Source: Candidatus Bathyarchaeia archaeon
Lineage (GTDB): Archaea > Thermoproteota > Bathyarchaeia > Hecatellales > Hecatellaceae
Reading direction: 5' to 3'
Length of the DNA: 64,000 nt
Assembly (NCBI GenBank): GCA_038883335.1
Contig: JAVZMI010000006.1
Coordinates: 16,811 to 80,810, forward strand
Below the pieces are notes generated by a model, which saw only the letters and a program-made list of their open reading frames with translations, searched no databases and was not told where the DNA came from. The translations under genes and the position numbers were made by a program. Of the stretch, positions 21,277 to 58,479 are shown in pieces; within the stretch, counting starts at the first letter, position 1; every line of letters begins with the position of its first letter.

Positions 21277-22974
21277 TCAACAAAGCCTCTTCAAGAGACT
21301 ACGAGCTTCCAACAGGACGCTGGGGATGACGAGGGGCACAAATTTATTCACGTAAAGGTGGGAGGTAATTTTCTTGACATGATCTTTAGAGCCACCACCA
21401 GCGATATAGCCCTCAGAGAAACTGGAGATTATATCGTCAATTCCTTTCATCGGATCTGTTGGTAGTGCGTAGTGTGCCGAGTAATATACGAACTCGGCTA
21501 GATCCCAGGGCTTATTTCCACCCTTCCCAGCCTGTTCTAAATCTACGAAGTAGATCCTCCCATCCTCACAAGCTACAATGTTCTCAGGCTTGTTATCTCC
21601 GATAGTGAAATCAACGCTGTGAATCTCAGCCAACGTCTTCCCAGCTCTCCAAAGTATAGACTTCACATCATCAGCGATCGCGCCACTTCTAATTACGCCT
21701 TTTATAAGTTTGTCAAGCCGTTGACCGTCGATGAATTCCTTGAAAAGTAGAGACCTATTCCAGCTTACACGCAAGATTGATGGTGTAGCGAACTTATGCT
21801 CCCTAAGGTAAAGGCTTGCTGCACACTCGCGGGCGAGTCTAGACTTAGCTCTGACGGAAAAGTTCTGAGCGCCTATAGCCCACATGGCTATGGGTAGCCA
21901 TTTGAAATCCGCCCACTCTTCAAACTTTTTTACGACTACCCGTGAGACTCCGTCATCCCGAAATAAAAGTAGATATACATTATTAAGCACCCCTCCCAGC
22001 TTCCTGATTTCGACGGCTTTGCCGCTGAATGCGCCCTCTCTCTCAACGTAATCTTCTATGGATGTTTCATCGCAGAGCCTTATGAAACCGTCTTTTGATG
22101 GCAATATGAGGAACCGTTTAGGGTCAAGTATTTCGCCTTCAGCAGCCTTTTCTGAGAGCCTCAACTCAAAGCCTATCTCGGATATTAATTCCCTCAACAA
22201 ATCGAGTGGAGAGGTTACTCCGGCGTAACCCCGAAATATTCGGCTACGCAAAACCTTTTCAAGCGATTTTATGAGAGCTACTTTTGGGAAACGTTTACTT
22301 AAGCATTGGGTCACGAAATCCTCTTTGACCTTCACCAGATCGCCGAGAAAAGTTATTTTCCCCTCGCCCTCAAGCTCCTTCAGGGCTACTTTATATCCCT
22401 CCTCAACTTGGGAGAGACAGGTATCGCGCTCATTACCGCTGAGCGACCTGTAGAAGCCCCACCACATGGCCGGGTGCATCTTTAACCTCCTCGCGATCTC
22501 ATCGAATACGAAAAACCTATTCTCGATTAGAATCTCACCCGCGAGACTGGAGTATTCCTTTACCAGGTTTTCGATGCTTCTAAGGATTATTTCCTTCTTT
22601 AACCTAATTTCTTTCTCCTTAAGGTAGGATGGGTTCTTAAGGGGGATATAGGGTAGCGATAGCCATCCAGCTGCGAGCTCGCCAAGCGTTGCCCCGGTAA
22701 CATCCTCCTCAAAAAGAACACGGTCAACTTGCAGAACTCTAATTCTGGAGCCTTCCAATTTATGGTGGGCGATTTTTATGCCCCTCAAAAAATCCTCGAG
22801 TACCACTAGAAGCAGGTTATCAGTTCCCAAACCTTGAAGACTCTCTGAGCCAATTAGGCAGACGGCGACTATCTTAGATGGGGCTGATAGACTCTGACAT
22901 AGTGATTCAATCTTTGATTGGAGTTGTTGATCCATGGTATGCGGCAAGCCCTTTTGAAAGAGCCGAAAGACCAT
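21277..22974 (-). CDS. Two-part protein: an N-terminal nucleotidyltransferase-like region and a C-terminal RIO/Bud32-like atypical protein kinase fold
   Basis: N-terminus: VCLIGSESLQGLGTDNLLLVVLED (pol-beta NTase-like GS...D.D pattern). C-terminus: VVKKFEE (VAIK-like Lys), IHSVDFTIGDNKPENIV (catalytic-loop-like D..K..N), YFVDLEQAG (the metal-binding D as in RIO 'IDxxQA'). Confidence 0.5.
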   Translation of the reverse strand: MVFRLFQKGLPHTMDQQLQSKIESLCQSLSAPSKIVAVCLIGSESLQGLGTDNLLLVVLEDFLRGIKIAHHKLEGSRIRVLQVDRVLFEEDVTGATLGELAAGWLSLPYIPLKNPSYLKEKEIRLKKEIILRSIENLVKEYSSLAGEILIENRFFVFDEIARRLKMHPAMWWGFYRSLSGNERDTCLSQVEEGYKVALKELEGEGKITFLGDLVKVKEDFVTQCLSKRFPKVALIKSLEKVLRSRIFRGYAGVTSPLDLLRELISEIGFELRLSEKAAEGEILDPKRFLILPSKDGFIRLCDETSIEDYVEREGAFSGKAVEIRKLGGVLNNVYLLLFRDDGVSRVVVKKFEEWADFKWLPIAMWAIGAQNFSVRAKSRLARECAASLYLREHKFATPSILRVSWNRSLLFKEFIDGQRLDKLIKGVIRSGAIADDVKSILWRAGKTLAEIHSVDFTIGDNKPENIVACEDGRIYFVDLEQAGKGGNKPWDLAEFVYYSAHYALPTDPMKGIDDIISSFSEGYIAGGGSKDHVKKITSHLYVNKFVPLVIPSVLLEARSLLKRLC

Positions 22975-37072: not shown

Positions 37073-38566
<1,494 letters not shown>

Positions 38567-38745
38567 AAGAAAACGACCACAATGGCTGGGGCGAAAGTAG
38601 TGGCAAACCCACAAGAGCAATAGATGCGATTCCGGAGCGAAAGCTTCGGGATTAAGGGCAGAGTGGACCTTTAACGGGTTCGCGGTGAATGCCGTGCAGA
38701 GTTGCACAAACTGGGTGTGGCTTCAAAGGATAGGCCCGACATGAG

Positions 38746-41792
<3,047 letters not shown>

Positions 41793-41848
41793 CGGGCTGA
41801 TATTTGAGGCTGCGCCCAGGTGAAATGACTCTGCACGGTGTTCTCTAA

Positions 41849-41855: not shown

Positions 41856-41974
41856 CCCTAGTGTTTTAAAGGCTTAGCCTATGTCCTAAAAAAGATGTTT
41901 CAGACTCTTTACTCTTACAGGTCGTTTTATCCGTTAGCCGATTGCGTAAGGTATAAACAACTCGGCATGTTTTT

Positions 41975-44074
41975 TTGTCTTTGGCTGTTCACCTCTGTAA
42001 GCCGTCAAGCACTGAAGGTATCCGGGTGGTGAGAGAGATCTCAAGCGTGAGTACTAAGGGGAGAGCGCTGGTTAAAGAGATAATCTTAGAGGACTTCATG
42101 TCCTATGAGTATGCGAGAATACCCTTAAAGCCAGGTCTTAACATGATCTGCGGCCCTAATGGGTCAGGTAAGTCCTCGATTTTGCTGGCTTTGGCGGTGG
42201 CCTTAGGCCAGGCGTACACGGAGCGTTCGAGGAGGCTTAGCGACCTCATCAGGCGCGGGAAGGATCTAGCCAGGGCGACTATCCTTCTAGACAATACACC
42301 CATTGGAAGCAGCAGACCGATCAAGAGTTACGATTCCGACCTTGTTAGGATCTCCAGATACCTTAGGAGAGATGGCGTATACTGGTATGAAGCTGAGTAT
42401 AGGAATGTAACCAAAGCCGAGATAGTCAGGCTCCTATCAGATCTAGGAATAAACCCTGACAACATGTTAATCATCATGCACCAAAACATGGTAGAAGAAT
42501 TCAGCGTGCTCAACCCTCCTCAAAGATTGAAGATGGTGGAGGACGCCATCGGATTCCAACCTTACCGGGAGAGAATACTTGAAGCCTACAACCAGCTTAC
42601 TAATCTTCTTAGCGAGGAGGAATCTCTAGCCAACCTGATAAACAATGCTGAACAGACCCTCAACTATTGGAGGGGTGAGTATGAAAAATTCCTCCGCAGA
42701 AATGAACTCCTCGAGAGGAGGAGAGAACTCGAAAGCGAACAAGCATGGGCTGAGGTGATTAGAGTTGAGAAAGCACTCAAAGCTCTTAGAGAGAACGCCG
42801 AGAGAAGTGAGAATAGGTTAAAGCAGATCACCCTAGAGCTCAACGAGGCGAAATCCAGAGTTGAGGAAAATAGATCCTACCTCAACAACCTCTGTTTCGA
42901 ACAGAAAAAAGCTTTCCTCACACTTCTGGAGCGGGAGAAAGAGAAAACTGGCAACGAAACTGCACTAACCATAGTGAAAGATCAAATCTCAAGGCTGGAA
43001 GAATGCCGAACCCTGTTAGAAAAAACAGCAAAAGAGCTACAGCGTAAATTTAAAGAGGAGAATGTTGATGTGGAAATGGCAATTCGCTCTCTTAAAGACG
43101 GTGCAGAGGTTCTCTCTAGCTATAGCCACTCTCTGAGAGACTATCTGAAAACAGTCGAGCAGAAGATCCCCAACCTAGAGAGCGCAATAGCTGAAGCCCA
43201 GTCGAGGATAGGTCTAATAGAGGAAGAGAACATTTCAATTCAGGAGAAGTTTGTCGAGGCTAAAGTGGACGAGGTGGTGAAGACTTTTAGAAAGGAGCTC
43301 CTTGAAGAGGAGGTAGCTAAGGTCACTAAAGAGATCAAATCCACAGCAGAGGAGTTAGAGAACCTAACAGCACTTGCGGAGAAAATATCCCCAAGGGTAG
43401 AGACCGAAAGAAGCCCTGCTGAGATCGCTGACGAGATCAAAATGACGCTAGCCAAGCTAGCCTCTATCGGTGAGGTCTCTGAAGATTCTGAGAAAGCTTA
43501 CAGAAACTATCTGCGCCTCTACGAAGAGTTGAAAGGGAAGATTGAGGTAGTCTCGGAGAACCGCCGAAAAGCCCTAGAGGAGGTCGAAGTCAGGAAGCAG
43601 ACATGGAGGCGAATCATCCAGAACTTCATCGAAAAAGTAGACTTGGCATATCAGGAGATACTCTCCAAAATAGGCGCCAGCGGCGGCGTCAGACTTGTAA
43701 ACTTGGACGACATAGAGAGTGCAGGTTTGGAGTTAGTTGTAGGCTTCAGGGGCGCAGCCCCCACCATTTTGGATGCTTACACACAGAGTGGAGGAGAAAG
43801 AACTACCGCCATCATGGCATTCCTCCTAGCTTTGCAACAACATGTCCGCTCGCCAATAAGGGCCGTAGACGAGTTCGAGACACATATGGATCCACGGAAT
43901 CGGGAGATAATCTCAAAACTGATACTCTCCTCTGTTAAGAGCCAGATGGATTTTCAATACATTATAATTACACCTGGGCAGATACTCACCCCAGATCCGG
44001 ATGTTCACGTGATCACCGTCCAAAATATCCAAGGAAGATCCGAGGTGAGAGTTGGTGGCACAGTCGCCGACTAG
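41975..44074 (+). CDS. Short, hinge-less SMC/Rad50-superfamily ATPase (about 660-699 aa)
   Basis: Motifs seen: N-terminal LVKEIILEDFMSYEY, Walker A GPNGSGKSS (nt 42152..), a Q-loop-like IIMHQN, about 370 aa of heptad-rich coiled coil, ABC signature QSGGERT (nt 43784..), and Walker B/D-loop IRAVDEFETHMD. I see no globular hinge and no Rad50 CxxC hook. The true start is probably an internal GTG (about 42026-42047). Confidence 0.8.
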   Translation: MSLAVHLCKPSSTEGIRVVREISSVSTKGRALVKEIILEDFMSYEYARIPLKPGLNMICGPNGSGKSSILLALAVALGQAYTERSRRLSDLIRRGKDLARATILLDNTPIGSSRPIKSYDSDLVRISRYLRRDGVYWYEAEYRNVTKAEIVRLLSDLGINPDNMLIIMHQNMVEEFSVLNPPQRLKMVEDAIGFQPYRERILEAYNQLTNLLSEEESLANLINNAEQTLNYWRGEYEKFLRRNELLERRRELESEQAWAEVIRVEKALKALRENAERSENRLKQITLELNEAKSRVEENRSYLNNLCFEQKKAFLTLLEREKEKTGNETALTIVKDQISRLEECRTLLEKTAKELQRKFKEENVDVEMAIRSLKDGAEVLSSYSHSLRDYLKTVEQKIPNLESAIAEAQSRIGLIEEENISIQEKFVEAKVDEVVKTFRKELLEEEVAKVTKEIKSTAEELENLTALAEKISPRVETERSPAEIADEIKMTLAKLASIGEVSEDSEKAYRNYLRLYEELKGKIEVVSENRRKALEEVEVRKQTWRRIIQNFIEKVDLAYQEILSKIGASGGVRLVNLDDIESAGLELVVGFRGAAPTILDAYTQSGGERTTAIMAFLLALQQHVRSPIRAVDEFETHMDPRNREIISKLILSSVKSQMDFQYIIITPGQILTPDPDVHVITVQNIQGRSEVRVGGTVAD

Positions 44075-44891
44075 CTCTCGGGATGACGGATTAGAATTAC
44101 TCCGGAGAATTATCTCTCTCTGCGAAGACGCACAGCGTCGAAGGTTCAACCCTTTCGAGGTAGAGGTCAAGGAGGCTCTTGAAAAAATTCGCCGATACCT
44201 CCCACGTTGGAGAACCTTCGAGGAGTTCTGCTTGGATAGCGAGGCTGTTAATGGCCTCTCAAAGGTGATAAGGCTTCAGGGTGACTGGATAAAATATAGG
44301 GCTTCTCCAGTCTATGTGGACTCAGACCTGGTGAAGTTTAAGATCAAAGTCTTAACCACCGAGCAGTTAGCGGGATTGTTCCTCGAGGCTTGGCGTCCCA
44401 TCCTAACTATAGAACAGATATCCACCACGAAGTTGAGAGAGGCGCTGGAATACTGGAATCTACTCCCACTTCTTGAGGATAAGTCCCTGAAGCTTAGAGA
44501 ACCCCAACCTGCCTCTTCTGAGCCTTTAAAGGTGGACGAACTACTTCGCCTAGGACTACTCCCAAGCAAAGAATTTAATGATATATTGATGGCTATGTGG
44601 CAGGAGCTGAAGGAAAAGGCTGGGGGTGACGGTAGGATTTCGTACTGGGATTTCATCTGTGCTGAAACCTATGACGAGACATTAGCCCGAGCCTATATGA
44701 CTAGCTTTCTCGTCACCTACGGCTACGCCAACTTGGAGGTTAACCCCTTAGAGGACTCCATACTCATAATTCCTTATGAGAGACAGAAGACACCTGAGCC
44801 TGGGCAACCATCCGTATCGGTTACTATCCCGGTAAACTATGAAGTGTGGAGGCGTTGGAAGTTGGGAGGTGAAAGACGCCAAGTTGGGTGA
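44052..44891 (+). CDS. Kleisin-like (ScpA-like) protein
   Basis: It overlaps the SMC-like gene's end. The N-terminal helical segment is LELLRRIISLCEDAQRRRFNPFEVEVKEALEKIRRYL. The C-terminal segment, YDETLARAYMTSFLVTYGYANLEVNPLEDSILIIP, resembles the kleisin C-terminal winged helix (ScpA 'FLALLEL.k.g.v.l.Q'). Confidence 0.5.
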   Translation: MVAQSPTSSRDDGLELLRRIISLCEDAQRRRFNPFEVEVKEALEKIRRYLPRWRTFEEFCLDSEAVNGLSKVIRLQGDWIKYRASPVYVDSDLVKFKIKVLTTEQLAGLFLEAWRPILTIEQISTTKLREALEYWNLLPLLEDKSLKLREPQPASSEPLKVDELLRLGLLPSKEFNDILMAMWQELKEKAGGDGRISYWDFICAETYDETLARAYMTSFLVTYGYANLEVNPLEDSILIIPYERQKTPEPGQPSVSVTIPVNYEVWRRWKLGGERRQVG

Positions 44892-45483
44892 AGAAGATGT
44901 TACCTATGCTAGAAAGGTGAAGAGAGCTGCTCAGCTCCTCCTCTTCCAGAGGCACAGAAAGCCAGGTATGAAGGGGTGGGAGCTAAAGAAGAACCTGGGG
45001 CGAGACTATATGAAGATTATAGAGCTTCTCAACCTCCAATTGGAGAGGCTAGGGCTTCGTGTTAAGACTGTGTATGAAGAGCCTTCAACACCGGCTAGTC
45101 CGAGCGATGAACAGCTGGAAAGGGCACGATTCTTTGTTACATTGGACGAACCCATGACTACTGGTGATATGTCTTCAAGTGGTCTGAGGATAGATGATAT
45201 AGCTGTCCTCTCGGTGGCGATAGCCTATATAATCTCCAAGCAGGGGAAGGCGTTGAGGAGAGAGGTTAAGGAGCTCCTAACGGATAAGATACCGGAGTGG
45301 AGGGTTGACCTTAATCTTGACAGGTTCATAAAGAGAGGCTACCTCTTCGAGGATGAGGAGGGCCTCCTCCACCTCGACTGGAGAACTAGGGCTGAGGTTG
45401 ACCTCAACGCCCTAACTGAACTAATGCTGGCGAAGCAGCCACCTGCCAGAAAAAAGGAAGATGTAGGGGATATAACTGCCTAG
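44839..45483 (+). CDS. ScpB/KITE-like tandem winged-helix protein
   Basis: KRAAQLLLFQRHRKPGMKGWELKKNL...IIELLNLQLERLGLRVKTV resembles ScpB WH1. IAVLSVAIAYIISKQGKALRREVKELL...FIKRGYL resembles ScpB WH2. The likely start is the TTG at 44884, overlapping the kleisin stop. Confidence 0.45.
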   Translation: MKCGGVGSWEVKDAKLGEEDVTYARKVKRAAQLLLFQRHRKPGMKGWELKKNLGRDYMKIIELLNLQLERLGLRVKTVYEEPSTPASPSDEQLERARFFVTLDEPMTTGDMSSSGLRIDDIAVLSVAIAYIISKQGKALRREVKELLTDKIPEWRVDLNLDRFIKRGYLFEDEEGLLHLDWRTRAEVDLNALTELMLAKQPPARKKEDVGDITA

Positions 45484-48599: not shown

Positions 48600-49307
48600 T
48601 TACTGGTTTTCCTTTCCTAGGAGCTTCTTGCATAGAGGTATGGCGCCTACTGCGTCCTCACTGTAGCCATTGGCGCCAACTTCCTCTGCGTACTCTCTAG
48701 TGACGGCAGACCCGCCCACGATGACCTTCACATCGTCCTTCAAGCCGGCAGACTCAACCTCCTTGATGGTTTCGCGTATGCTCTTTAGGGAGGAAGTCAA
48801 GAGGGCTGATAGCCCCAAAATTTCGGCTTTCGTCTCTTTCACTTTCTCAACGAACTTCTTGGGTGGGACGTCGACCCCTATGTCGTGGACGGTGAAGCCT
48901 GCTGACTTGAGCATCGTTGCTACTATGTTTTTTCCTATGTCGTGGACGTCTCCTTCTACGGTGCCGATCACAATGGAGGCTAGGGATCTCACCTTCGAAT
49001 CTGATTGAAGGAGGGGTTCTATAAGTCTCAAGCCTTTGTTGAAGGTCTCAGCCGCCATTATGAGGTCTGCTAGGAAGTAGTCTCCTGCCTCAAATCGCTC
49101 TCCTACAGCCCGCATAGCCTCAGTCATCACCTCAAGAACCTTGATGGGTGCAGCTCCTTTATCGAGTGCGGCTTTCACAGCTGCCTCGACAATTTCGACC
49201 TCATGCTCCAGCACCGCTCTCCTCAACTCCTCTAGTTCGCCTTCGAACTCCAACCTGCTTACACCTCCAAGCGTAGGTAAGCTACCTGCGGGTCCATCAG
49301 TTCTCAT
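48600..49307 (-). CDS. Corrinoid (B12)-binding protein of the methyltransferase-cognate type
   Basis: N-terminal helical cap, then GTVEGDVHDIGKNIV (DxHxxG), GLSALLTSS (SxL) and VIVGGSAV (GG). Confidence 0.8.
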   Translation of the reverse strand: MRTDGPAGSLPTLGGVSRLEFEGELEELRRAVLEHEVEIVEAAVKAALDKGAAPIKVLEVMTEAMRAVGERFEAGDYFLADLIMAAETFNKGLRLIEPLLQSDSKVRSLASIVIGTVEGDVHDIGKNIVATMLKSAGFTVHDIGVDVPPKKFVEKVKETKAEILGLSALLTSSLKSIRETIKEVESAGLKDDVKVIVGGSAVTREYAEEVGANGYSEDAVGAIPLCKKLLGKENQ

Positions 49308-49620: not shown

Positions 49621-51033
49621 ATGAGTTTAAAACGTACCAAGACTGGTATTAAGGGTTTAGACTCTTATACTGGCGGCTTTACAGAGGGCAGCCTAATTAT
49701 GCTGTCGGGCGAAGCTGGAACCGGTAAAACAATTTTTTCAGCCGAATTTATATATCGCGGCGCAGAGAACGGTGAGAACGGCGTATATCTCAGCTTCGCT
49801 GAGACGCGCGAGGTATTTTATAGTAACATGCGTAGCTTCGGCTGGGATTTTGAGAGGCTGGAAAAGGAGGGTAAATTCAAGTTTTTAGAAACGCCATCAA
49901 TGCGTGAGGAGGGGGTCTCCTCCATGCTGGAGATGGTTCTAGATGAAGTTCGCAGCTTAGGAGCGAAGAGACTCGCGGTAGACTCGTTCTCTGCATTGGC
50001 TCAAGCCTTTAAGGAGCGTATAGACGTCCGCATAGTGCTCCATACGGTTCTAGACAAAATAATCAAGCAAGCAAAGTGTACCACGGTTCTAATCGTCGAA
50101 ATACCCAAGGGCACAAACCAGTTAGGGCTAGGTATGGAGGAGTTTGTCGCAGACTGCATAATCAAACTTTCGAGGCGAGAGTTTGAGGGACAGCTGCTTA
50201 GAGAGTTAGAGTTACTGAAGCTTCGCGGAGCTGAGATCAGACAGTCTAAAATCGCCTTCACCCTCAAAGGCGGATTCAAAATGTTAACCCCTCTGACCTC
50301 GGAAGGCGATATAGAAGAGCCCAAGAGGTATAGACCCATTCCCAACACTGAAACTCACATCTCATCGGGCGTTCGAGACTTGGACGAGATTATTGGGGGA
50401 GGAGCTAGGATTGGAACCTATAATCTATTTGAGGTTGGTAGAGATGTACCCTTCTCCATAACCCGCCTCGTACGGTCGATGATCTATAACTGCGTCAGCC
50501 AAGACTATGGTGTAGTCATCCTTCCGCCGAGAGGAGTAAGTGCACACAGAGTTAAAGCCCGTATGGCACCCATGCTAGGGGATGAAGCTTTCGAGCACTA
50601 CGTTAGAATAGTTGATTTCGGCGAGGAGGCTAAGGCTCCCTATATTGTGAATTTGGAGGGTAAATCCATCCGTGAAGACTTTGAACTGTTCTGGGGTGCA
50701 ACCTCCAAGCTTAGAGAAAAGACAGGCAAGCCTGTGTTTTCCGTTGTTGGATTCGACTCTCTTGAGTACATGTATGGCCGAGATGAGGCATTGAAGATCC
50801 TCGGCCGAGATGTTACACTTACCAGAAACTTTAACGATGTGAGGCTTAACATCATAAGACCGACTATCACCCTTGCGGATCAACTCAGAGCCCTAGCTGA
50901 CATCTACTTCAAAGTCGACGAGATCGACGGAGCTATATTTCTACGCGGTGTGAAACCAAAGACGCCTTTATACAGTTTCAATGTGTCAACATGTCAGGGC
51001 GTATCTGAGGTGAAACTTATACCGGTGGTATAG
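49621..51033 (+). CDS. KaiC-like/RecA-superfamily ATPase; the second domain lacks a P-loop
   Basis: The N-terminal domain has IKGLDSYTGGFTEGSLIMLSGEAGTGKT (Walker A) and TTVLIVEIP (Walker B-like). The second half starts with a KaiC-like ISSGVRDLDEIIGGG but has no GxxGxGKT. Confidence 0.75.
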   Translation: MSLKRTKTGIKGLDSYTGGFTEGSLIMLSGEAGTGKTIFSAEFIYRGAENGENGVYLSFAETREVFYSNMRSFGWDFERLEKEGKFKFLETPSMREEGVSSMLEMVLDEVRSLGAKRLAVDSFSALAQAFKERIDVRIVLHTVLDKIIKQAKCTTVLIVEIPKGTNQLGLGMEEFVADCIIKLSRREFEGQLLRELELLKLRGAEIRQSKIAFTLKGGFKMLTPLTSEGDIEEPKRYRPIPNTETHISSGVRDLDEIIGGGARIGTYNLFEVGRDVPFSITRLVRSMIYNCVSQDYGVVILPPRGVSAHRVKARMAPMLGDEAFEHYVRIVDFGEEAKAPYIVNLEGKSIREDFELFWGATSKLREKTGKPVFSVVGFDSLEYMYGRDEALKILGRDVTLTRNFNDVRLNIIRPTITLADQLRALADIYFKVDEIDGAIFLRGVKPKTPLYSFNVSTCQGVSEVKLIPVV

Positions 51034-55596: not shown

Positions 55597-58479
55597 ATGT
55601 GCAGGTCCTCTCTCATGGCCTCAACTGCGAAGAATTATTCACTCCACCTTGTAGGCTTGGGTGGGGCAGGTAGCAACATCTTAGAAGCGTTCTTTAAAAG
55701 TTCTAAGATCTTCCAATTTTTACAGCTCAGAGGCGTCAAACTTACGTGCTTAGCGCTGGATGTCGCTGATCATGATATCCTGCGGCTTATTCAAGCTTAT
55801 GAGGAGTTTAAAGAAGAATTACGGGTGCGCCACATCCCGGCTGATAAGGCCTACCTTAATGCGCGGTCAGTTAAATTTCCTACGCCACAAGCTATGTTCG
55901 AGTATATACAGAAGCTTCCAGAGTACATTAAACTCGAGGGTGGAAATCCGCCGGAGAACTACAAGCCATGGCTCTCCTCAGCAGTAGAGATCCCTCCTCT
56001 GTCTGGGGGTGTAGCTAGGAGGAGAGCCCTCGCTAAAGCCATCTACGGTCTCAACTACCACTATCTTCGGCTATTGGACAGCTACATTGAGAACTTCAAA
56101 GAGAATGTATCGTCTTCTATTCTTCAGCCTCTCATCTTTGTGTTCTTTGGAGTGGGGGGTGGCAGTGGTAGCGGAATGGTAATGGACTTTGTCCGCCACC
56201 TCCGAAAGAAGATAGGGACAGGCTTTCCCATAATAGGGGTGGGAATACTGCCCTGTCAGGGCGATGACCACAGAGCGAAGGGCGCCTCTGCATATGCTGC
56301 CATAAACGAGTTAGAACTACTTATAGAGGGAGGCAAGAATAAGATAATCAGGGAGACCTACGGGGAGACTTATGGAAATCCTTTCACAGCCTTTCTAATG
56401 ATGCCTCTAGCTCCGCCCTACAAGAAGACTGGCAACCTCCTTGAGGCTCAAAGGTTTTTCGACGAGGCAGTAGTAGACATTGTGCTGAACACGATGAAGT
56501 TTGACATGGCTGACATGTTAGATGGAATTGGGGCGAACCTAGATTATGGCGAGAATGCCATTCACATCATGACCACGCTACGTGTAACCTATCCAATCCT
56601 CGAGCATATAGCCCTAGCTAAACTCTACCTAGAGAAACTGTCCAAGCTCAAGGTCTTGAGAAGGGAGCGCATGGAGATATTAGCTGGCTCTGAGGAGAAG
56701 GGATTCGGCGGGCTTGAGCAACTCATAAACCTATGTTACGCGGAGTTAGCTGAGATCTTCTGGCGGCTACAGCGTTCGAGGGGGGCATACGATCCAGCTA
56801 AGAAGGATGAGAGTATAAGAGGTTTCATCTACAGCGACAAATCCGTTGAATCCAATTATAGAATTCAAATACGGGGGCTGGAGGAAGCTATTCGAGACTC
56901 AGTGGACGAGATTGTAACACCAGTACTCGCTATAGGTTTAGAGGCACCTGAGGCGACGCCTGAGGCTAGGTTGAGGACGCACATCAGCCAGATAATAGAT
57001 CACACGCGGCATGTAGCTTCAACATACCTAACTTTCCATGAAGATATTTCAAACCTCATAAACGAATTAAATAGTAACGTTACGGCTACTCAACGTTTAA
57101 CCTTCAGAGAAAGGACACAGTTAAACGATTTCCTAGAGTTTGTGAAGTTCATAGAAAAATACATCTCAGTGCTTAAGAGATATGTAGAGACAAAGGTTCT
57201 CGCCGACAAGTTGGTGACAGAGCTTAGGACAGGTGAAGCCGCCGAGTGGAAGGATCAGCTTGGGAACATCGCCGAGAAAATCGCCAATGTAGAACTTAAA
57301 CTCATATTCAACACGCTGACCGGACTCTTCAGGTCGGGCAAGGCTGAAATTTCAACTATAGAATCCTACAGTAAGGAAGTTTCCAGTTTGACGAAGACGC
57401 TGAGAGAAGACCTCTCACAGACGGCAACGCTGAGGGATCAACTAGCAGCGGAGATTAAAAACTCTGAGGAGGAGATTGAAACCTCTTTAAAGGAGGCTGA
57501 GAGGTTCAGCGTCAGAGTATTTCGCCCTAGCAAAGGGAAGAAGCTGAAAGAGAAGGCCGCCTCTCTGCAGAAGGAAGTCGAAGATAAGAAGACAAGCCTC
57601 CAAGAAGTAGCGACCTATATCTCGAGTGTTGAGGGGAGGGTGAAAGAGTACACAATAATTGAGAGAAGGGTTGACATCGACTCGGATTACCGTAGACTGT
57701 TGATGAACATAGTCGACATCGACAACCAATACTACGAGAAACTGTCAGAGGTTAGCAGGGATCGAGGATACTATGATAGAGTAATGGACATAACAGAGGG
57801 AGAGAAGTTACGGATAATGAGCAAGATTCTACAGGAAGAAGAGTATGCCCTGACGAGGGAGAACATACTCAAAGAGATAATCGACCTTAAACGGTTTAGA
57901 GAGTGCCTCATCGGCGCTATAAGAGTTCTCCAGGTTCCAAGTAGCATAGGCGTCGAGAGCAGCTACAAGAGCGACTACATGTGGGTGACCGTGGTTGCTC
58001 CTGAAGGGATATGGGATCCCGAGTTGGATGCAGAACTCAAAGCTACACTAGCCGGGTACCTCTCAACTGGCGCAGCAAGAAGCATACACGTGTCGCATGT
58101 AGAGGCTGAAGATCCATGGACGATAAGAATACTCTTGGTCGCAGGTAAGGCTAGCAAGAAGGATCTGGACTTGTACTTGGAGATGAAGTCACTGTACGAG
58201 CAGGCTTCTTACAGCGACAAGATTCTAGCACACTCTCTACTCTTAGAGCACGGCATACTCGCAGCTGAGGCCCCAGTATATATCCCTCAGCAACGTTTGG
58301 CGAGCAAACCAGTTGGCACACCCTCGATCTCTGTATGCCCAAACTGCAAGAGCACAAATACGTCCATGCTCAAGGAGTGGAATATGTCAACTAAGAGTGG
58401 TAAAGGCCTACCTTTACATGTTGCATTATATAACTGTAGCGAGTGCAATAAAAAGTTCAGAGTCGTTACAAAGGTTTAG
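55597..58479 (+). CDS. 960-aa tubulin/FtsZ-superfamily GTPase-like protein fused to a long helical region, a globular domain and a C-terminal zinc ribbon
   Basis: Motifs seen: VGLGGAGSN (aa 19-27, T1-like), SGGVARRRALAKA (T3-like), GVGGGSGSG (aa 185-193, nt 56149..56175, T4 signature-like), LPCQGDDHRAKGASAYAAINEL (T5/H5-like), NTMKFDMADM (aa 298-307, T7-like). Then about 430 aa of charged helical sequence, followed by CPNC-x29-CSEC at the C-terminus. Confidence 0.7.
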   Translation: MCRSSLMASTAKNYSLHLVGLGGAGSNILEAFFKSSKIFQFLQLRGVKLTCLALDVADHDILRLIQAYEEFKEELRVRHIPADKAYLNARSVKFPTPQAMFEYIQKLPEYIKLEGGNPPENYKPWLSSAVEIPPLSGGVARRRALAKAIYGLNYHYLRLLDSYIENFKENVSSSILQPLIFVFFGVGGGSGSGMVMDFVRHLRKKIGTGFPIIGVGILPCQGDDHRAKGASAYAAINELELLIEGGKNKIIRETYGETYGNPFTAFLMMPLAPPYKKTGNLLEAQRFFDEAVVDIVLNTMKFDMADMLDGIGANLDYGENAIHIMTTLRVTYPILEHIALAKLYLEKLSKLKVLRRERMEILAGSEEKGFGGLEQLINLCYAELAEIFWRLQRSRGAYDPAKKDESIRGFIYSDKSVESNYRIQIRGLEEAIRDSVDEIVTPVLAIGLEAPEATPEARLRTHISQIIDHTRHVASTYLTFHEDISNLINELNSNVTATQRLTFRERTQLNDFLEFVKFIEKYISVLKRYVETKVLADKLVTELRTGEAAEWKDQLGNIAEKIANVELKLIFNTLTGLFRSGKAEISTIESYSKEVSSLTKTLREDLSQTATLRDQLAAEIKNSEEEIETSLKEAERFSVRVFRPSKGKKLKEKAASLQKEVEDKKTSLQEVATYISSVEGRVKEYTIIERRVDIDSDYRRLLMNIVDIDNQYYEKLSEVSRDRGYYDRVMDITEGEKLRIMSKILQEEEYALTRENILKEIIDLKRFRECLIGAIRVLQVPSSIGVESSYKSDYMWVTVVAPEGIWDPELDAELKATLAGYLSTGAARSIHVSHVEAEDPWTIRILLVAGKASKKDLDLYLEMKSLYEQASYSDKILAHSLLLEHGILAAEAPVYIPQQRLASKPVGTPSISVCPNCKSTNTSMLKEWNMSTKSGKGLPLHVALYNCSECNKKFRVVTKV

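Follow-up and report, generated by a model that had tools for sequence, protein, structure and literature searches.

A predicted hingeless, short-armed SMC5/6-related SMC-kleisin-KITE operon in Bathyarchaeia

Can an SMC ATPase with shortened arms and no hinge belong to a complete SMC complex and, if so, to which one? The question is raised by a locus from a Bathyarchaeia archaeon, lying in a stretch of 64,000 nucleotides that was analysed as a whole (the window). Downstream of an rRNA operon (16S, 37073-38566; 23S, 38732-41799), an ORF scan finds three plus-strand reading frames at 41975-44074 (699 aa), 44052-44891 (279 aa) and 44839-45483 (214 aa). A previous interpretation of the bare DNA, here called the sequence-only reading, had placed three overlapping plus-strand genes at these positions, as the scan bears out. 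It had also proposed that they form a complete SMC-kleisin-KITE set, possibly an archaeal SMC-related complex of a class of its own, leaving its relation to other systems undecided. Our comparisons support the complete set and allow the relation to be settled: the three genes are predicted from sequence and fold to be an archaeal relative of eukaryotic Smc5/6. The notion of a distinct class fails, as the locus is the archaeal SMC5/6-related operon already published (PMC8665677; bioRxiv 10.1101/2024.01.07.573240).

The three genes are co-oriented and overlapping, each with an SD-like site, and all of their features given below lie on the plus strand. The longest ORF of the SMC gene begins at TTG 41975; the true start is probably GTG 42047 (42047..44074, 675 aa), because it is preceded by the SD-like sequence GGTGGTGA and 675 aa fits the 640-680 aa of the homologues. 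An ATPase of '699 aa (or shorter)' had been anticipated. The kleisin gene (44052..44891), defined by its 279-aa ORF and the junction sequence, has a start preceded by GAGGTGA and overlaps the end of the SMC gene by 23 nt. For the KITE gene the longest ORF opens at ATG 44839, although TTG 44884 (44884..45483, ~199 aa) is the likely start, since the SD-like GGAGGTGA precedes it and the family N-terminus fits.

The ATPase has the split head of the SMC superfamily, with Walker A, Q-loop, signature, Walker B and D-loop arranged around an antiparallel coiled coil, and it matches Pfam SMC_N at 1e-32 over residues 33-667. In the AlphaFold2 (AF2) model, the N-terminal head half comprises residues 1-170 (42047..42556) and holds the Walker A GPNGSGKSS (42152-42178) and the Q-loop; G36-S43 and the Q-loop glutamine Q146 are invariant columns in a 57-sequence alignment. 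The C-terminal half, residues 542-675 (43670..44071), carries the signature QSGGERT (43784-43804) and the Walker B/D-loop AVDEFETHMD (43862-43891). All three motifs are present as the sequence-only reading had listed them; the head motifs do not vary among 57 homologues, and the set is intact, including the Walker B glutamate (DEFE). In an alignment with yeast Smc5 the counterparts there read 'TQSGGER', 'FRVVDEINQGMD' and 'QYFLITP', and the C-terminal half has 'IITP' at the position of the bacterial Smc ITH.

A head-only phmmer comparison ranks yeast Smc5 (132.6 bits) above archaeal Smc (95.5) and Smc2 (~70), and a full-length search of PDB sequences returns the same ranking, with Smc5 and Smc6 best. 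Yeast Smc6 and Smc5 likewise head the Foldseek results for the ATPase model, followed in third place by the P. yayanosii Smc head with coiled coil and joint (5xei). Among 1.84 billion representatives, the search reaches, beyond the archaeal family, eukaryotic SMC5/6-type proteins (1,050-1,130 aa, for example sponge SMC6) at ~195-220 bits; Asgard SMC-family proteins of 1,126-1,196 aa, one of them named chromosome segregation protein SMC, attain the same range. Judged by ranked scores and a rough NJ tree, the head thus appears to lie nearer Smc5/6 than either Smc1-4 or the prokaryotic Smc, in agreement with the Smc5/6-type head suspected earlier.

The partner genes point the same way. Residues 196-268 of the kleisin (44637..44855) form a C-terminal winged-helix domain, presumed to bind the SMC cap, that matches Pfam Nse4_C with E=0.0066; the domain is found in 44 of 51 family members (best 5.7e-6). 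Searched against the PDB, a profile of the 51 orthologues retrieves Nse4 only (yeast, 9e-5; human EID3, 5.6e-4), and none of the 51 matches ScpA (PF02616), even at E<=1. The proposal of a 279-aa protein ending in a kleisin winged helix is upheld by these Nse4 matches. The KITE model (AF2, pLDDT 75) consists of tandem winged helices encoded at 44890-45144 and 45190-45375. Its Foldseek matches, at low TM-scores of ~0.33, are led by Nse3, JetB (rank 2), MAGE-G1, Nse1 and MAGEA4, with ScpB at rank 15. Pfam SMC_Nse1 and MAGE match weakly in 6 and 5 of 50 members, respectively, ScpB (PF04079) matches none of the 50 orthologues even at E<=1, and the ~199-aa protein has no RING domain. As modelled, the KITE would therefore be Nse1/Nse3/MAGE-like rather than ScpB-like: the earlier description of a ~200-aa protein with two ScpB-like winged helices was right as to the tandem winged-helix KITE and wrong as to ScpB. 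That the second and third genes might have no kleisin or KITE similarity is countered by the Nse4 profile matches and the Nse3/MAGE/Nse1 fold matches.

The association of the three genes is far beyond chance, given more than 4,000 homologues of the ATPase and the synteny of 80 related loci, mostly from Bathyarchaeia: the kleisin lies directly 3' of the SMC gene in 72 of them and the KITE gene is adjacent in 69. These two are the sole conserved neighbours of the SMC gene across the 80 loci. At ANME-1 loci the SMC gene stands by itself, so that in some lineages its product may work independently of kleisin and KITE. Around the operon in the window lie rRNA genes, a ModE-like regulator and an ABC transporter; NusA, L30e, rpoA and rpoB take that place in about 21 Bathyarchaeia loci. 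The 80 loci have no conserved nuclease or other effector gene near the operon; together with the core-gene neighbours, this suggests a housekeeping role. That the genes follow the rRNA operon directly, a point singled out in the sequence-only reading, is real but carries no significance, as 0 of the 80 related loci lie near rRNA. A published table of 21 sampled Bathyarchaeia genomes records an Nse1/3-related kite in 18 and, in 16 of the 21, a ScpB-like kite besides it; the co-occurrence of both types in 16 genomes points to a separate canonical complex that coexists in Bathyarchaeia.

In the AF2 model of the ATPase (pLDDT 85; like that of the KITE, a monomer) the head halves are joined by a single helical hairpin. 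The intervening stretch measures 371 residues, close to the ~370 aa of coiled coil estimated before. An ascending helix (residues 171-335; 42557..43051) runs uninterrupted for ~24 nm with pLDDT mostly 85-92, falling near the tip, where a polar 7-residue turn, KEENVDV (336-342; 43052..43072), leads into a descending helix (343-541; 43073..43669). The latter is broken only at a joint-like site, residues 448-456 and 475-480 (within 43388-43486). The strands are thus 165 and 199 residues long, and each arm has ~165 residues and ~24 nm. A canonical SMC has arms of ~300-350 residues (~45-50 nm) and a total of ~1,050-1,250 aa; members of this family span 548-685 aa, and every one keeps arms, with at least ~100 residues per strand.

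In place of a canonical hinge, the model has helix, turn and helix, with no globular domain between the head halves. Neither Pfam SMC_hinge (PF06470) nor the Rad50 zinc hook matches the window ATPase, and PF06470 is absent from the precomputed Pfam domains of its 120 closest homologues. The arms of 57 family members contain no CxxC, and the tip has no Cys. Conservation in the family is lowest over residues 316-360, an indel hot spot whose columns 331-345 are 87% gaps. The predicted structure accordingly shows arms of about half the canonical length, with a variable polar turn replacing hinge or zinc hook. The lack of both had been claimed from the sequence and stands; a middle that models as a normal hinge, which would have told against it, gave way to the hairpin.

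The hingeless form was probably derived by loss of the hinge, judging from the tree position of hinge-bearing relatives that share the operon. P0290, a 982-aa protein with a hinge-like middle, is encoded in the same SMC-kleisin-KITE arrangement, and Pfam SMC_hinge matches the Asgard protein P0322. In 65 of 100 NJ bootstraps, a moderate level of support, the two branch outside the short clade. A nested subclade appears to have regained long arms together with a Rad50-like CxxC and to have lost its link to kleisin and KITE.

Operons of an 'SMC5/6-related' SMC, an Nse4-related kleisin and an Nse1/3-related kite in TACK and Asgard archaea were described by Yoshinaga & Inagaki 2021 (PMC8665677) and by van Hooff et al. 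2025 (bioRxiv 10.1101/2024.01.07.573240). The window shares with them the taxa (Bathyarchaeota, Thaumarchaeota, other TACK), gene composition and order, and the types of head, kleisin and kite; with its Smc5/6-type head and the adjacent Nse4-related kleisin and Nse1/3-related kite, it is a typical member with no difference in kind. Both papers treat the SMC5/6-related proteins as ordinary hinge-dimerising SMCs, and their main texts and the supplements searched do not mention that the large clade of the Bathyarchaeia type is hingeless and short-armed (~640 aa). Natural SMC paralogues predicted to be hinge-less have been reported from marine Actinobacteria (bioRxiv 10.1101/2024.01.08.574615), but these are bacterial proteins of the canonical SMC lineage, confined to a small environmental cluster and unrelated to the archaeal Smc5/6-type family.

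Each of the three proteins finds its best match, in sequence and in fold, in the eukaryotic Smc5/6 core (Smc5-Smc6-Nse4-Nse1-Nse3). Shared features are the head motifs TQSGGER, DE(F/I)xxxMD and ITP and the use of a KITE rather than a HAWK partner. The eukaryotic holocomplex contains an Smc5-Smc6 heterodimer, the Nse1 RING, the Nse2 SUMO ligase and Nse5/6. The archaeal locus instead has one SMC and one KITE gene, the KITE without RING, so homodimers are presumed; Nse2 and Nse5/6 genes are missing from the conserved neighbourhood. The hinge is also lacking, and the arms reach ~24 nm against ~45-50 nm.

Other classes were considered and set aside. Smc-ScpAB has the same SMC2-kleisin-KITE2 logic, operon organization and joint in the arm, but the ATPase scores 181 bits with SMC_prok_A (TIGR02169; cut-off 729), has no hinge, and comes with no ScpA or ScpB Pfam match. 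The ASRP proteins (ClsN, Sph1/2) form a clade of their own and bear a zinc-hook motif in the arm; here NF045487 yields 47 bits, short of its cut-off of 300, and there is no CxxC. Wadjet and MukBEF systems combine a hinged JetC/MukB-type ATPase with a MukF-type kleisin, a MukE-type KITE and, in Wadjet, the JetD nuclease. For the Wadjet/MksBEF/MukBEF group the JetC match is weak (1.6e-6) and restricted to the coiled coil, JetD is absent, and JetB is a KITE match at the level of fold.

Taken together, the explanation that we favour, with a probability of roughly 0.7, is a chromosomal housekeeping-type operon that is the archaeal counterpart of the Smc5/6-Nse1/3/4 core, has lost the hinge and acts as a kleisin-bridged head clamp. 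Two SMC subunits could not be joined at the far ends of their arms and would be held at the heads instead. ATP would be sandwiched between both heads, and the kleisin would bridge them asymmetrically, binding one neck through its N-domain and the opposite cap through its C-terminal winged helix. By also carrying a KITE dimer, it would complete an SMC2-kleisin1-KITE2 particle. Function as an ATP-gated DNA clamp is most likely, by analogy with the DNA-clamped state of yeast Smc5/6; DNA would lie atop the engaged heads, gripped by kleisin and KITE, rather than within a hinge-closed tripartite ring.

A miniature closed ring is the first alternative. Here the hairpin arms would dimerize at or near their tips, through a lineage-variable helical bundle in the manner of RecN, or zip into a rod, enclosing a lumen of ~25 nm that would entrap DNA and perhaps translocate or extrude loops like Smc5/6. 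All other parts of a ring-forming SMC are present, including the cap-binding kleisin winged helix and the KITE; the joint-like break is conserved, the retention of arms in every member suggests that they are needed, and eukaryotic Smc5/6 is a loop extruder according to work cited in PMC11840125. A polar, gap-rich and least conserved tip with no conserved motif is nevertheless atypical for an obligate dimer interface, and the gain of CxxC in the related subclade suggests that the short forms have no strong one, making this arrangement unlikely in our judgement. We consider it improbable that the operon is an anti-plasmid or anti-virus module, in which a Lamassu-, Wadjet- or Smc5/6-restriction-like sensor would rely on an effector encoded elsewhere. 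PADLOC does match the ATPase (mad3, 3.6e-25; LmuB, 4.4e-20, over the full length), JetB ranks second for the KITE fold, and human Smc5/6 restricts episomal DNA (PMC10586767). LmuB and the Rad50/RecN-type ATPases, moreover, resemble the window protein in having ~650 aa, coiled coils of ~20 nm and no SMC hinge (PMC10586767). These proteins, however, rely on a zinc hook or coiled-coil dimerization and on nuclease or effector subunits, where the window has kleisin and KITE, and the window ATPase is far less similar to them, or to JetC, than to Smc5.

Assignment to Lamassu (LmuABC) was rejected, since PADLOC is silent on kleisin and KITE and no effector is nearby; neither LmuA, LmuC, JetD nor another nuclease or effector is conserved beside the SMC gene in the 80 loci. 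Defence is further opposed by the core-gene surroundings (rRNA, RNA polymerase, NusA, L30e), the presence of the kite in most sampled Bathyarchaeia genomes, a broad divergence (38-66% protein identity across the 80 loci and database matches) and the intact Walker B glutamate, which many LmuB proteins lack (PMC10586767). A Rad50/RecN-type ATPase for double-strand-break repair, with a remote nuclease and two unrelated winged-helix proteins downstream, is already disfavoured by the data, and we rate it as very improbable. The short coiled coil without hinge does recall RecN or a hookless Rad50, and NCBIfam Rad50 models match weakly (1e-11 to 2e-14). Yet these models reach 42-52 bits against cut-offs of 700-1087, PDB Rad50 scores far below Smc5 (~1e-7 versus 1e-37), CxxC is absent and Mre11 is not among the conserved neighbours. 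The grouping with Rad50 or RecN and a nuclease partner, against which the sequence-only reading had wished to be checked, is thus not what the scores indicate, and the two following genes are strictly syntenic and resemble Nse4 and Nse1/3 specifically.

The SMC5/6-related family is already known from phylogenies; what is added here is that a hingeless, half-arm 'mini' form is common and natural, an architecture that appears undescribed in the literature searched. The broader claim, that a very large, vertically inherited archaeal Smc5/6-type clade shed the hinge and half of the arms and retained kleisin, KITE and an intact ATPase, is more tentative, and we place it slightly short of an even chance. 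If true, KITE-type SMC complexes would not require a hinge-closed ring or an arm of 50 nm for their conserved core activity. The tip of the arm would be a module open to exchange, a hinge outside the clade, a bare hairpin within it and a CxxC hook in the nested subclade, and these archaea would offer a natural minimal system for sorting out which steps of clamping, entrapment and loop extrusion need a hinge.

The three plus-strand open reading frames (ORFs) that a sequence-only reading had placed here are all present in the window: the longest ORF of the SMC-type ATPase spans 41975-44074 (+), the kleisin ORF 44052-44891 (+) and the longest ORF of the KITE protein 44839-45483 (+). To judge from the start signals, the true ATPase and KITE genes probably begin later than their longest ORFs. 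For the ATPase, a GTG at 42047, preceded by GGTGGTGA, gives a protein of 675 residues, in agreement with the N-termini and lengths of its homologues; for the KITE protein, a TTG at 44884, preceded by GGAGGTGA, gives 199 residues and agrees with the family consensus. The kleisin starts at either TTG 44052 or GTG 44055, behind a GAGGTGA, so that its first codons fall within the last part of the SMC gene. Such overlaps, together with the Shine-Dalgarno-like sites, are consistent with translational coupling and a single operon. Archaeal 16S (37073-38566, +) and 23S (38732-41799, +) rRNA genes lie upstream; a T-rich stretch separates the end of the 23S gene from the SMC operon, for which, judged by sequence alone, a TATAAA at 41952-41957 may serve as its own promoter. 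No 5S rRNA gene was detected across the 64-kb window, despite the presence of the 16S-23S operon (37073-41799, +).

The ATPase matches Pfam SMC_N (1e-32) and has no Pfam match to SMC_hinge or to the zinc hook, while its NCBIfam scores as a canonical SMC, Rad50, ASRP, RecF or arcadin-4 fall far under the cut-offs; on these scores, assignment to the ASRP, Rad50, RecF or arcadin families was rejected. Among PDB sequences, the best matches to the full-length protein were yeast Smc5 (8e-36), human SMC6 (3e-28) and Pyrococcus Smc (6e-27). A second search, from which the coiled coil had been removed so that only the head remained, was led by yeast Smc5 (132.6 bits), followed by human SMC5 (97.6), P. 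yayanosii Smc (95.5), yeast Smc6 (86) and Smc2 (about 70), and the head-only alignment with yeast Smc5 reveals common TQSGGER, DE(F/I)xxxMD and 'ITP' motifs. The ATPase motifs are all intact and are invariant across the homologue alignment. When 1.84 billion representative proteins were searched with a profile, the next-best matches after the archaeal family, at approximately 195-220 bits, were proteins of the eukaryotic SMC5/6 type, sponge SMC6 among them, and Asgard SMC-family proteins. The Smc5/6-like head proposed in the sequence-only reading is thus borne out, with the PDB sequence scores favouring Smc5. Genes of this kind, now annotated as 'AAA family ATPase' or 'hypothetical protein', could be named.

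An AlphaFold2 monomer model of the ATPase, built from 57 homologues (pLDDT 85.3), predicts a simple hairpin. The head halves comprise residues 1-170 and 542-675; between them, an uninterrupted outgoing helix (171-335) leads through a seven-residue turn, KEENVDV, into a returning helix (343-541) that is broken only at 448-456 and 475-480, and these predicted breaks resemble the SMC 'joint'. The best Foldseek matches of the model were yeast Smc6, yeast Smc5 and a head-joint fragment of P. yayanosii Smc. No hinge is predicted and the model leaves no space for one; if each residue adds about 0.15 nm, the arm would measure about 24 nm, half as long as the arms of canonical SMC proteins. Conservation within the family is lowest at residues 316-360, and residues 331-345 align with gaps in 87% of the sequences. 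Nor does a CxxC motif occur in the arm of any of the 57 family members, arm cysteines never numbering more than two. Model, Pfam searches and the lack of an arm CxxC therefore agree with the earlier suggestion that both hinge and hook are missing.

That the operon joins an SMC protein to a kleisin and a KITE protein, as had also been proposed, is upheld by profile and fold matches, with one revision: genes 2 and 3 are indeed a kleisin and a KITE protein, of the Nse4 and Nse1/3 types rather than the ScpA/ScpB type. A kleisin profile of 51 orthologues matched Nse4 and nothing else among PDB sequences (yeast Nse4, 9e-5; human EID3/NSMCE4, 5.6e-4) through the C-terminal winged helix, and Pfam Nse4_C is present in 44 of the 51 orthologues. 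The KITE family profile yielded no significant match among PDB sequences, so that structure prediction was needed. The resulting AlphaFold2 monomer model is a tandem winged helix (pLDDT 74.6), for which Foldseek placed Nse3, JetB, MAGE-G1, Nse1 and MAGEA4 at the top and MukE at rank 18. A few KITE orthologues give weak Pfam matches to SMC_Nse1 or MAGE. A KITE protein of the ScpB type was rejected, since ScpB appears only at Foldseek rank 15 and has no Pfam match in any orthologue.

These assignments place the locus within a family already described, and not in the distinct class of archaeal complex that had been envisaged from the sequence. Archaeal SMC homologues branching with eukaryotic SMC5 and SMC6 have been reported from Crenarchaeota, Verstraetearchaeota, Thaumarchaeota, Bathyarchaeota and Korarchaeota (Yoshinaga & Inagaki 2021, PMC8665677), and van Hooff et al. 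(2025, bioRxiv 10.1101/2024.01.07.573240) described an operon with genes for an SMC5/6-related SMC, a kleisin related to Nse4 and a kite related to Nse1/3. Counting the entries of their Supplementary Table 3, we find the Nse1/3-related kite in 18 of 21 Bathyarchaeia genomes, the ScpB-like kite in 18 and both in 16, which makes a separate canonical Smc-ScpAB complex likely in Bathyarchaeia at the level of the class. Within the window itself, no second SMC-like ORF of SMC size was found. The main texts of both papers and the supplements searched make no mention of a missing hinge or short arms, and full-text literature searches for a hingeless archaeal SMC returned only an unrelated report, on hinge-less SMCs of marine Actinobacteria. 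The family is hence known from phylogenies, and it is the predicted build of the ATPase, hingeless and with arms of half length, and the plasticity of its tip that seem to be undescribed in the literature searched.

Database searching at E<=1e-5 recovered more than 4,000 relatives of the ATPase, of which the nearest 120 share 46-66% identity with it. These 120 belong to Bathyarchaeia, Nitrososphaerales, Hecatellales and related lineages, and nearly all are 624-726 residues long (one relative, P0080, has 1,042). Scanning a single genome for each species gave 80 loci, the majority from Bathyarchaeia and the remainder including Hadarchaeota, ANME-1/Methanophagales, Nitrososphaeria, Culexmicrobium and Methanomethylicia. 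The SMC gene is followed by the kleisin gene in 72 of these and by the KITE gene in 69; loci without the full set are mainly at contig ends, plus two from ANME-1 with the ATPase alone. In these two ANME-1/Methanophagales loci (L030:7995-9899 and L045), the short ATPase has 634 residues and is about 45% identical, and neither partner gene occurs within 8 kb of it. Kleisin and KITE may be encoded at another site, or else the ATPase, once transferred into a euryarchaeal lineage, works by itself.

Clustering of neighbouring ORFs over the 80 loci left SMC, kleisin and KITE as the sole conserved genes, the next commonest neighbours being an unannotated protein of 230 residues and a NusA-L30e-rpoA-rpoB cluster (about 21 loci). 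The former, which has no Pfam match, has its gene ahead of the operon and in divergent orientation in 32 of the 80 loci (for example L017:5876-6568, minus strand). From the window, the clustering took in 33000-54000, and the protein was not found there. The sequence-only reading had given weight to the adjacent rRNA genes; this adjacency is incidental, as no rRNA lies near any of the 80 loci, in which a blastn search with the window's 16S and 23S gave no match. The window's own neighbours encode a ModE-like regulator, an ABC transporter, a corrinoid protein and a KaiC-like ATPase. The last of these has a GvpD basic-region domain (2e-54 and 4e-12) and adjoins a tRNA gene and the B12-binding corrinoid protein, the features concerned lying at 49621-51033 (+) and 48600-49307 (-). 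Elsewhere in the window, a 960-residue ORF (55597-58479, +), unusually long for an archaeal tubulin-superfamily protein, bears at its N-terminus a GTPase domain resembling tubulin/FtsZ (Pfam Tubulin_2, 4.7e-8; Tubulin, 4.4e-8), and a 565-residue ORF (21277-22974, -) drew no Pfam match at E<=1e-4.

In the search of representative proteins, the family is mostly 548-685 residues long, with a few long relatives. Some of these bear a hinge: P0322 (835 residues), from the Asgard archaeon Ca. Freyarchaeum deiterrae, has a clear Pfam SMC_hinge, P0310 (928 residues) has a globular middle, and P0290 (982 residues) is globular and rich in Pro and Gly in its middle part, which matches Pfam SMC_hinge weakly (0.0064) and for which PDB sequences offered nothing useful. 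Downstream of P0290 (locus L082:4014-8261) lie kleisin and KITE orthologues (hhalign probabilities 99.7% and 98.7%). The hinges of these three relatives suggest that the hingeless form in the window arose by loss. Other long relatives, the bathyarchaeotal P0241, P0243, P0245 and P0080 (1,016-1,047 residues), have no hinge; P0241, P0243 and P0080 carry CDKCG halfway along the arm (positions 531-548), and P0245 also has a mid-arm CxxC. What looks like a secondary, Rad50-like hook is thereby set on an Smc5/6-type head, and no kleisin or KITE neighbours were found at the P0241 and P0243 loci; the contig of P0080 ends too soon to reveal neighbouring genes.

A crude tree (head-only neighbour-joining, 100 bootstraps) placed the hinge-bearing forms outside the clade of hingeless, short-armed ATPases (65/100) and the CxxC-bearing P0241, P0243 and P0245 inside it, as sister to a 646-residue protein (88/100). 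Two further short ATPases with arms free of Pro and Gly, P0325 and P0329 (633 and 628 residues), group with hinge-bearing Asgard and Aenigmatarchaeota forms (96/100), not with the main short clade, and may represent an independent hinge loss. On this tree, the simplest reading is a hinged ancestor, loss of hinge and distal arm in the now-dominant TACK lineage, and re-elongation of the arms with a hook-like motif in one subclade. Because Asgard and some other relatives retain a hinge, the ancestral state was probably not the short form, which would instead be a derived side branch.

The intact ATPase motifs, the retention of the kleisin's cap-binding winged helix and of the KITE fold, and the variable arm tip, which is polar and without conserved motifs, suggest subunits joined at the heads only. 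In such a complex, two ATPase subunits would be held together at their heads alone, with ATP sandwiched between them, while a single kleisin would bridge neck to cap and bear a KITE dimer, the resulting particle acting as an ATP-gated DNA clamp. The proposal, drawn on the archaeal side from genes and monomer models, may be likened to yeast Smc5/6 in its DNA-clamped state, where heads, necks and Nse1/3/4 encircle DNA and the hinge is uninvolved (PMC9191643).

The main mechanistic rival to this clamp is a small closed ring or rod, whose subunits would dimerize through lineage-specific contacts of the tip or arm. A defence role of the Lamassu, Wadjet or Smc5/6-restriction type is less likely, both the distribution and the genomic context counting against it: no nuclease or effector gene is associated with the operon in the 80 loci, a defence-island setting was not seen among their neighbours, and the context looks like that of a core chromosomal function. 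A role of the Rad50 or RecN type is unlikely in view of the sequence scores and of the kleisin and KITE partners. A head-joined clamp of the Smc5/6 type remains our preferred reading, and a complex of such small size is an inviting subject for biochemistry and cryo-EM.

Smc5/6 is the least understood of the eukaryotic SMC complexes and, to our knowledge, its archaeal relatives are known from phylogenies only. The dominant form in TACK archaea is a hairpin ATPase of 640-680 residues, without a hinge and still linked to an Nse4-like kleisin and an Nse1/3-like KITE protein. As predicted features, the hingeless architecture and the plasticity of its tip should be of real interest to SMC specialists. 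Models of loop extrusion and segment capture, as now framed, invoke a hinge and long arms; a hingeless operon bears on which parts of the SMC machine are indispensable and on the form of the ancestor of eukaryotic Smc5/6.
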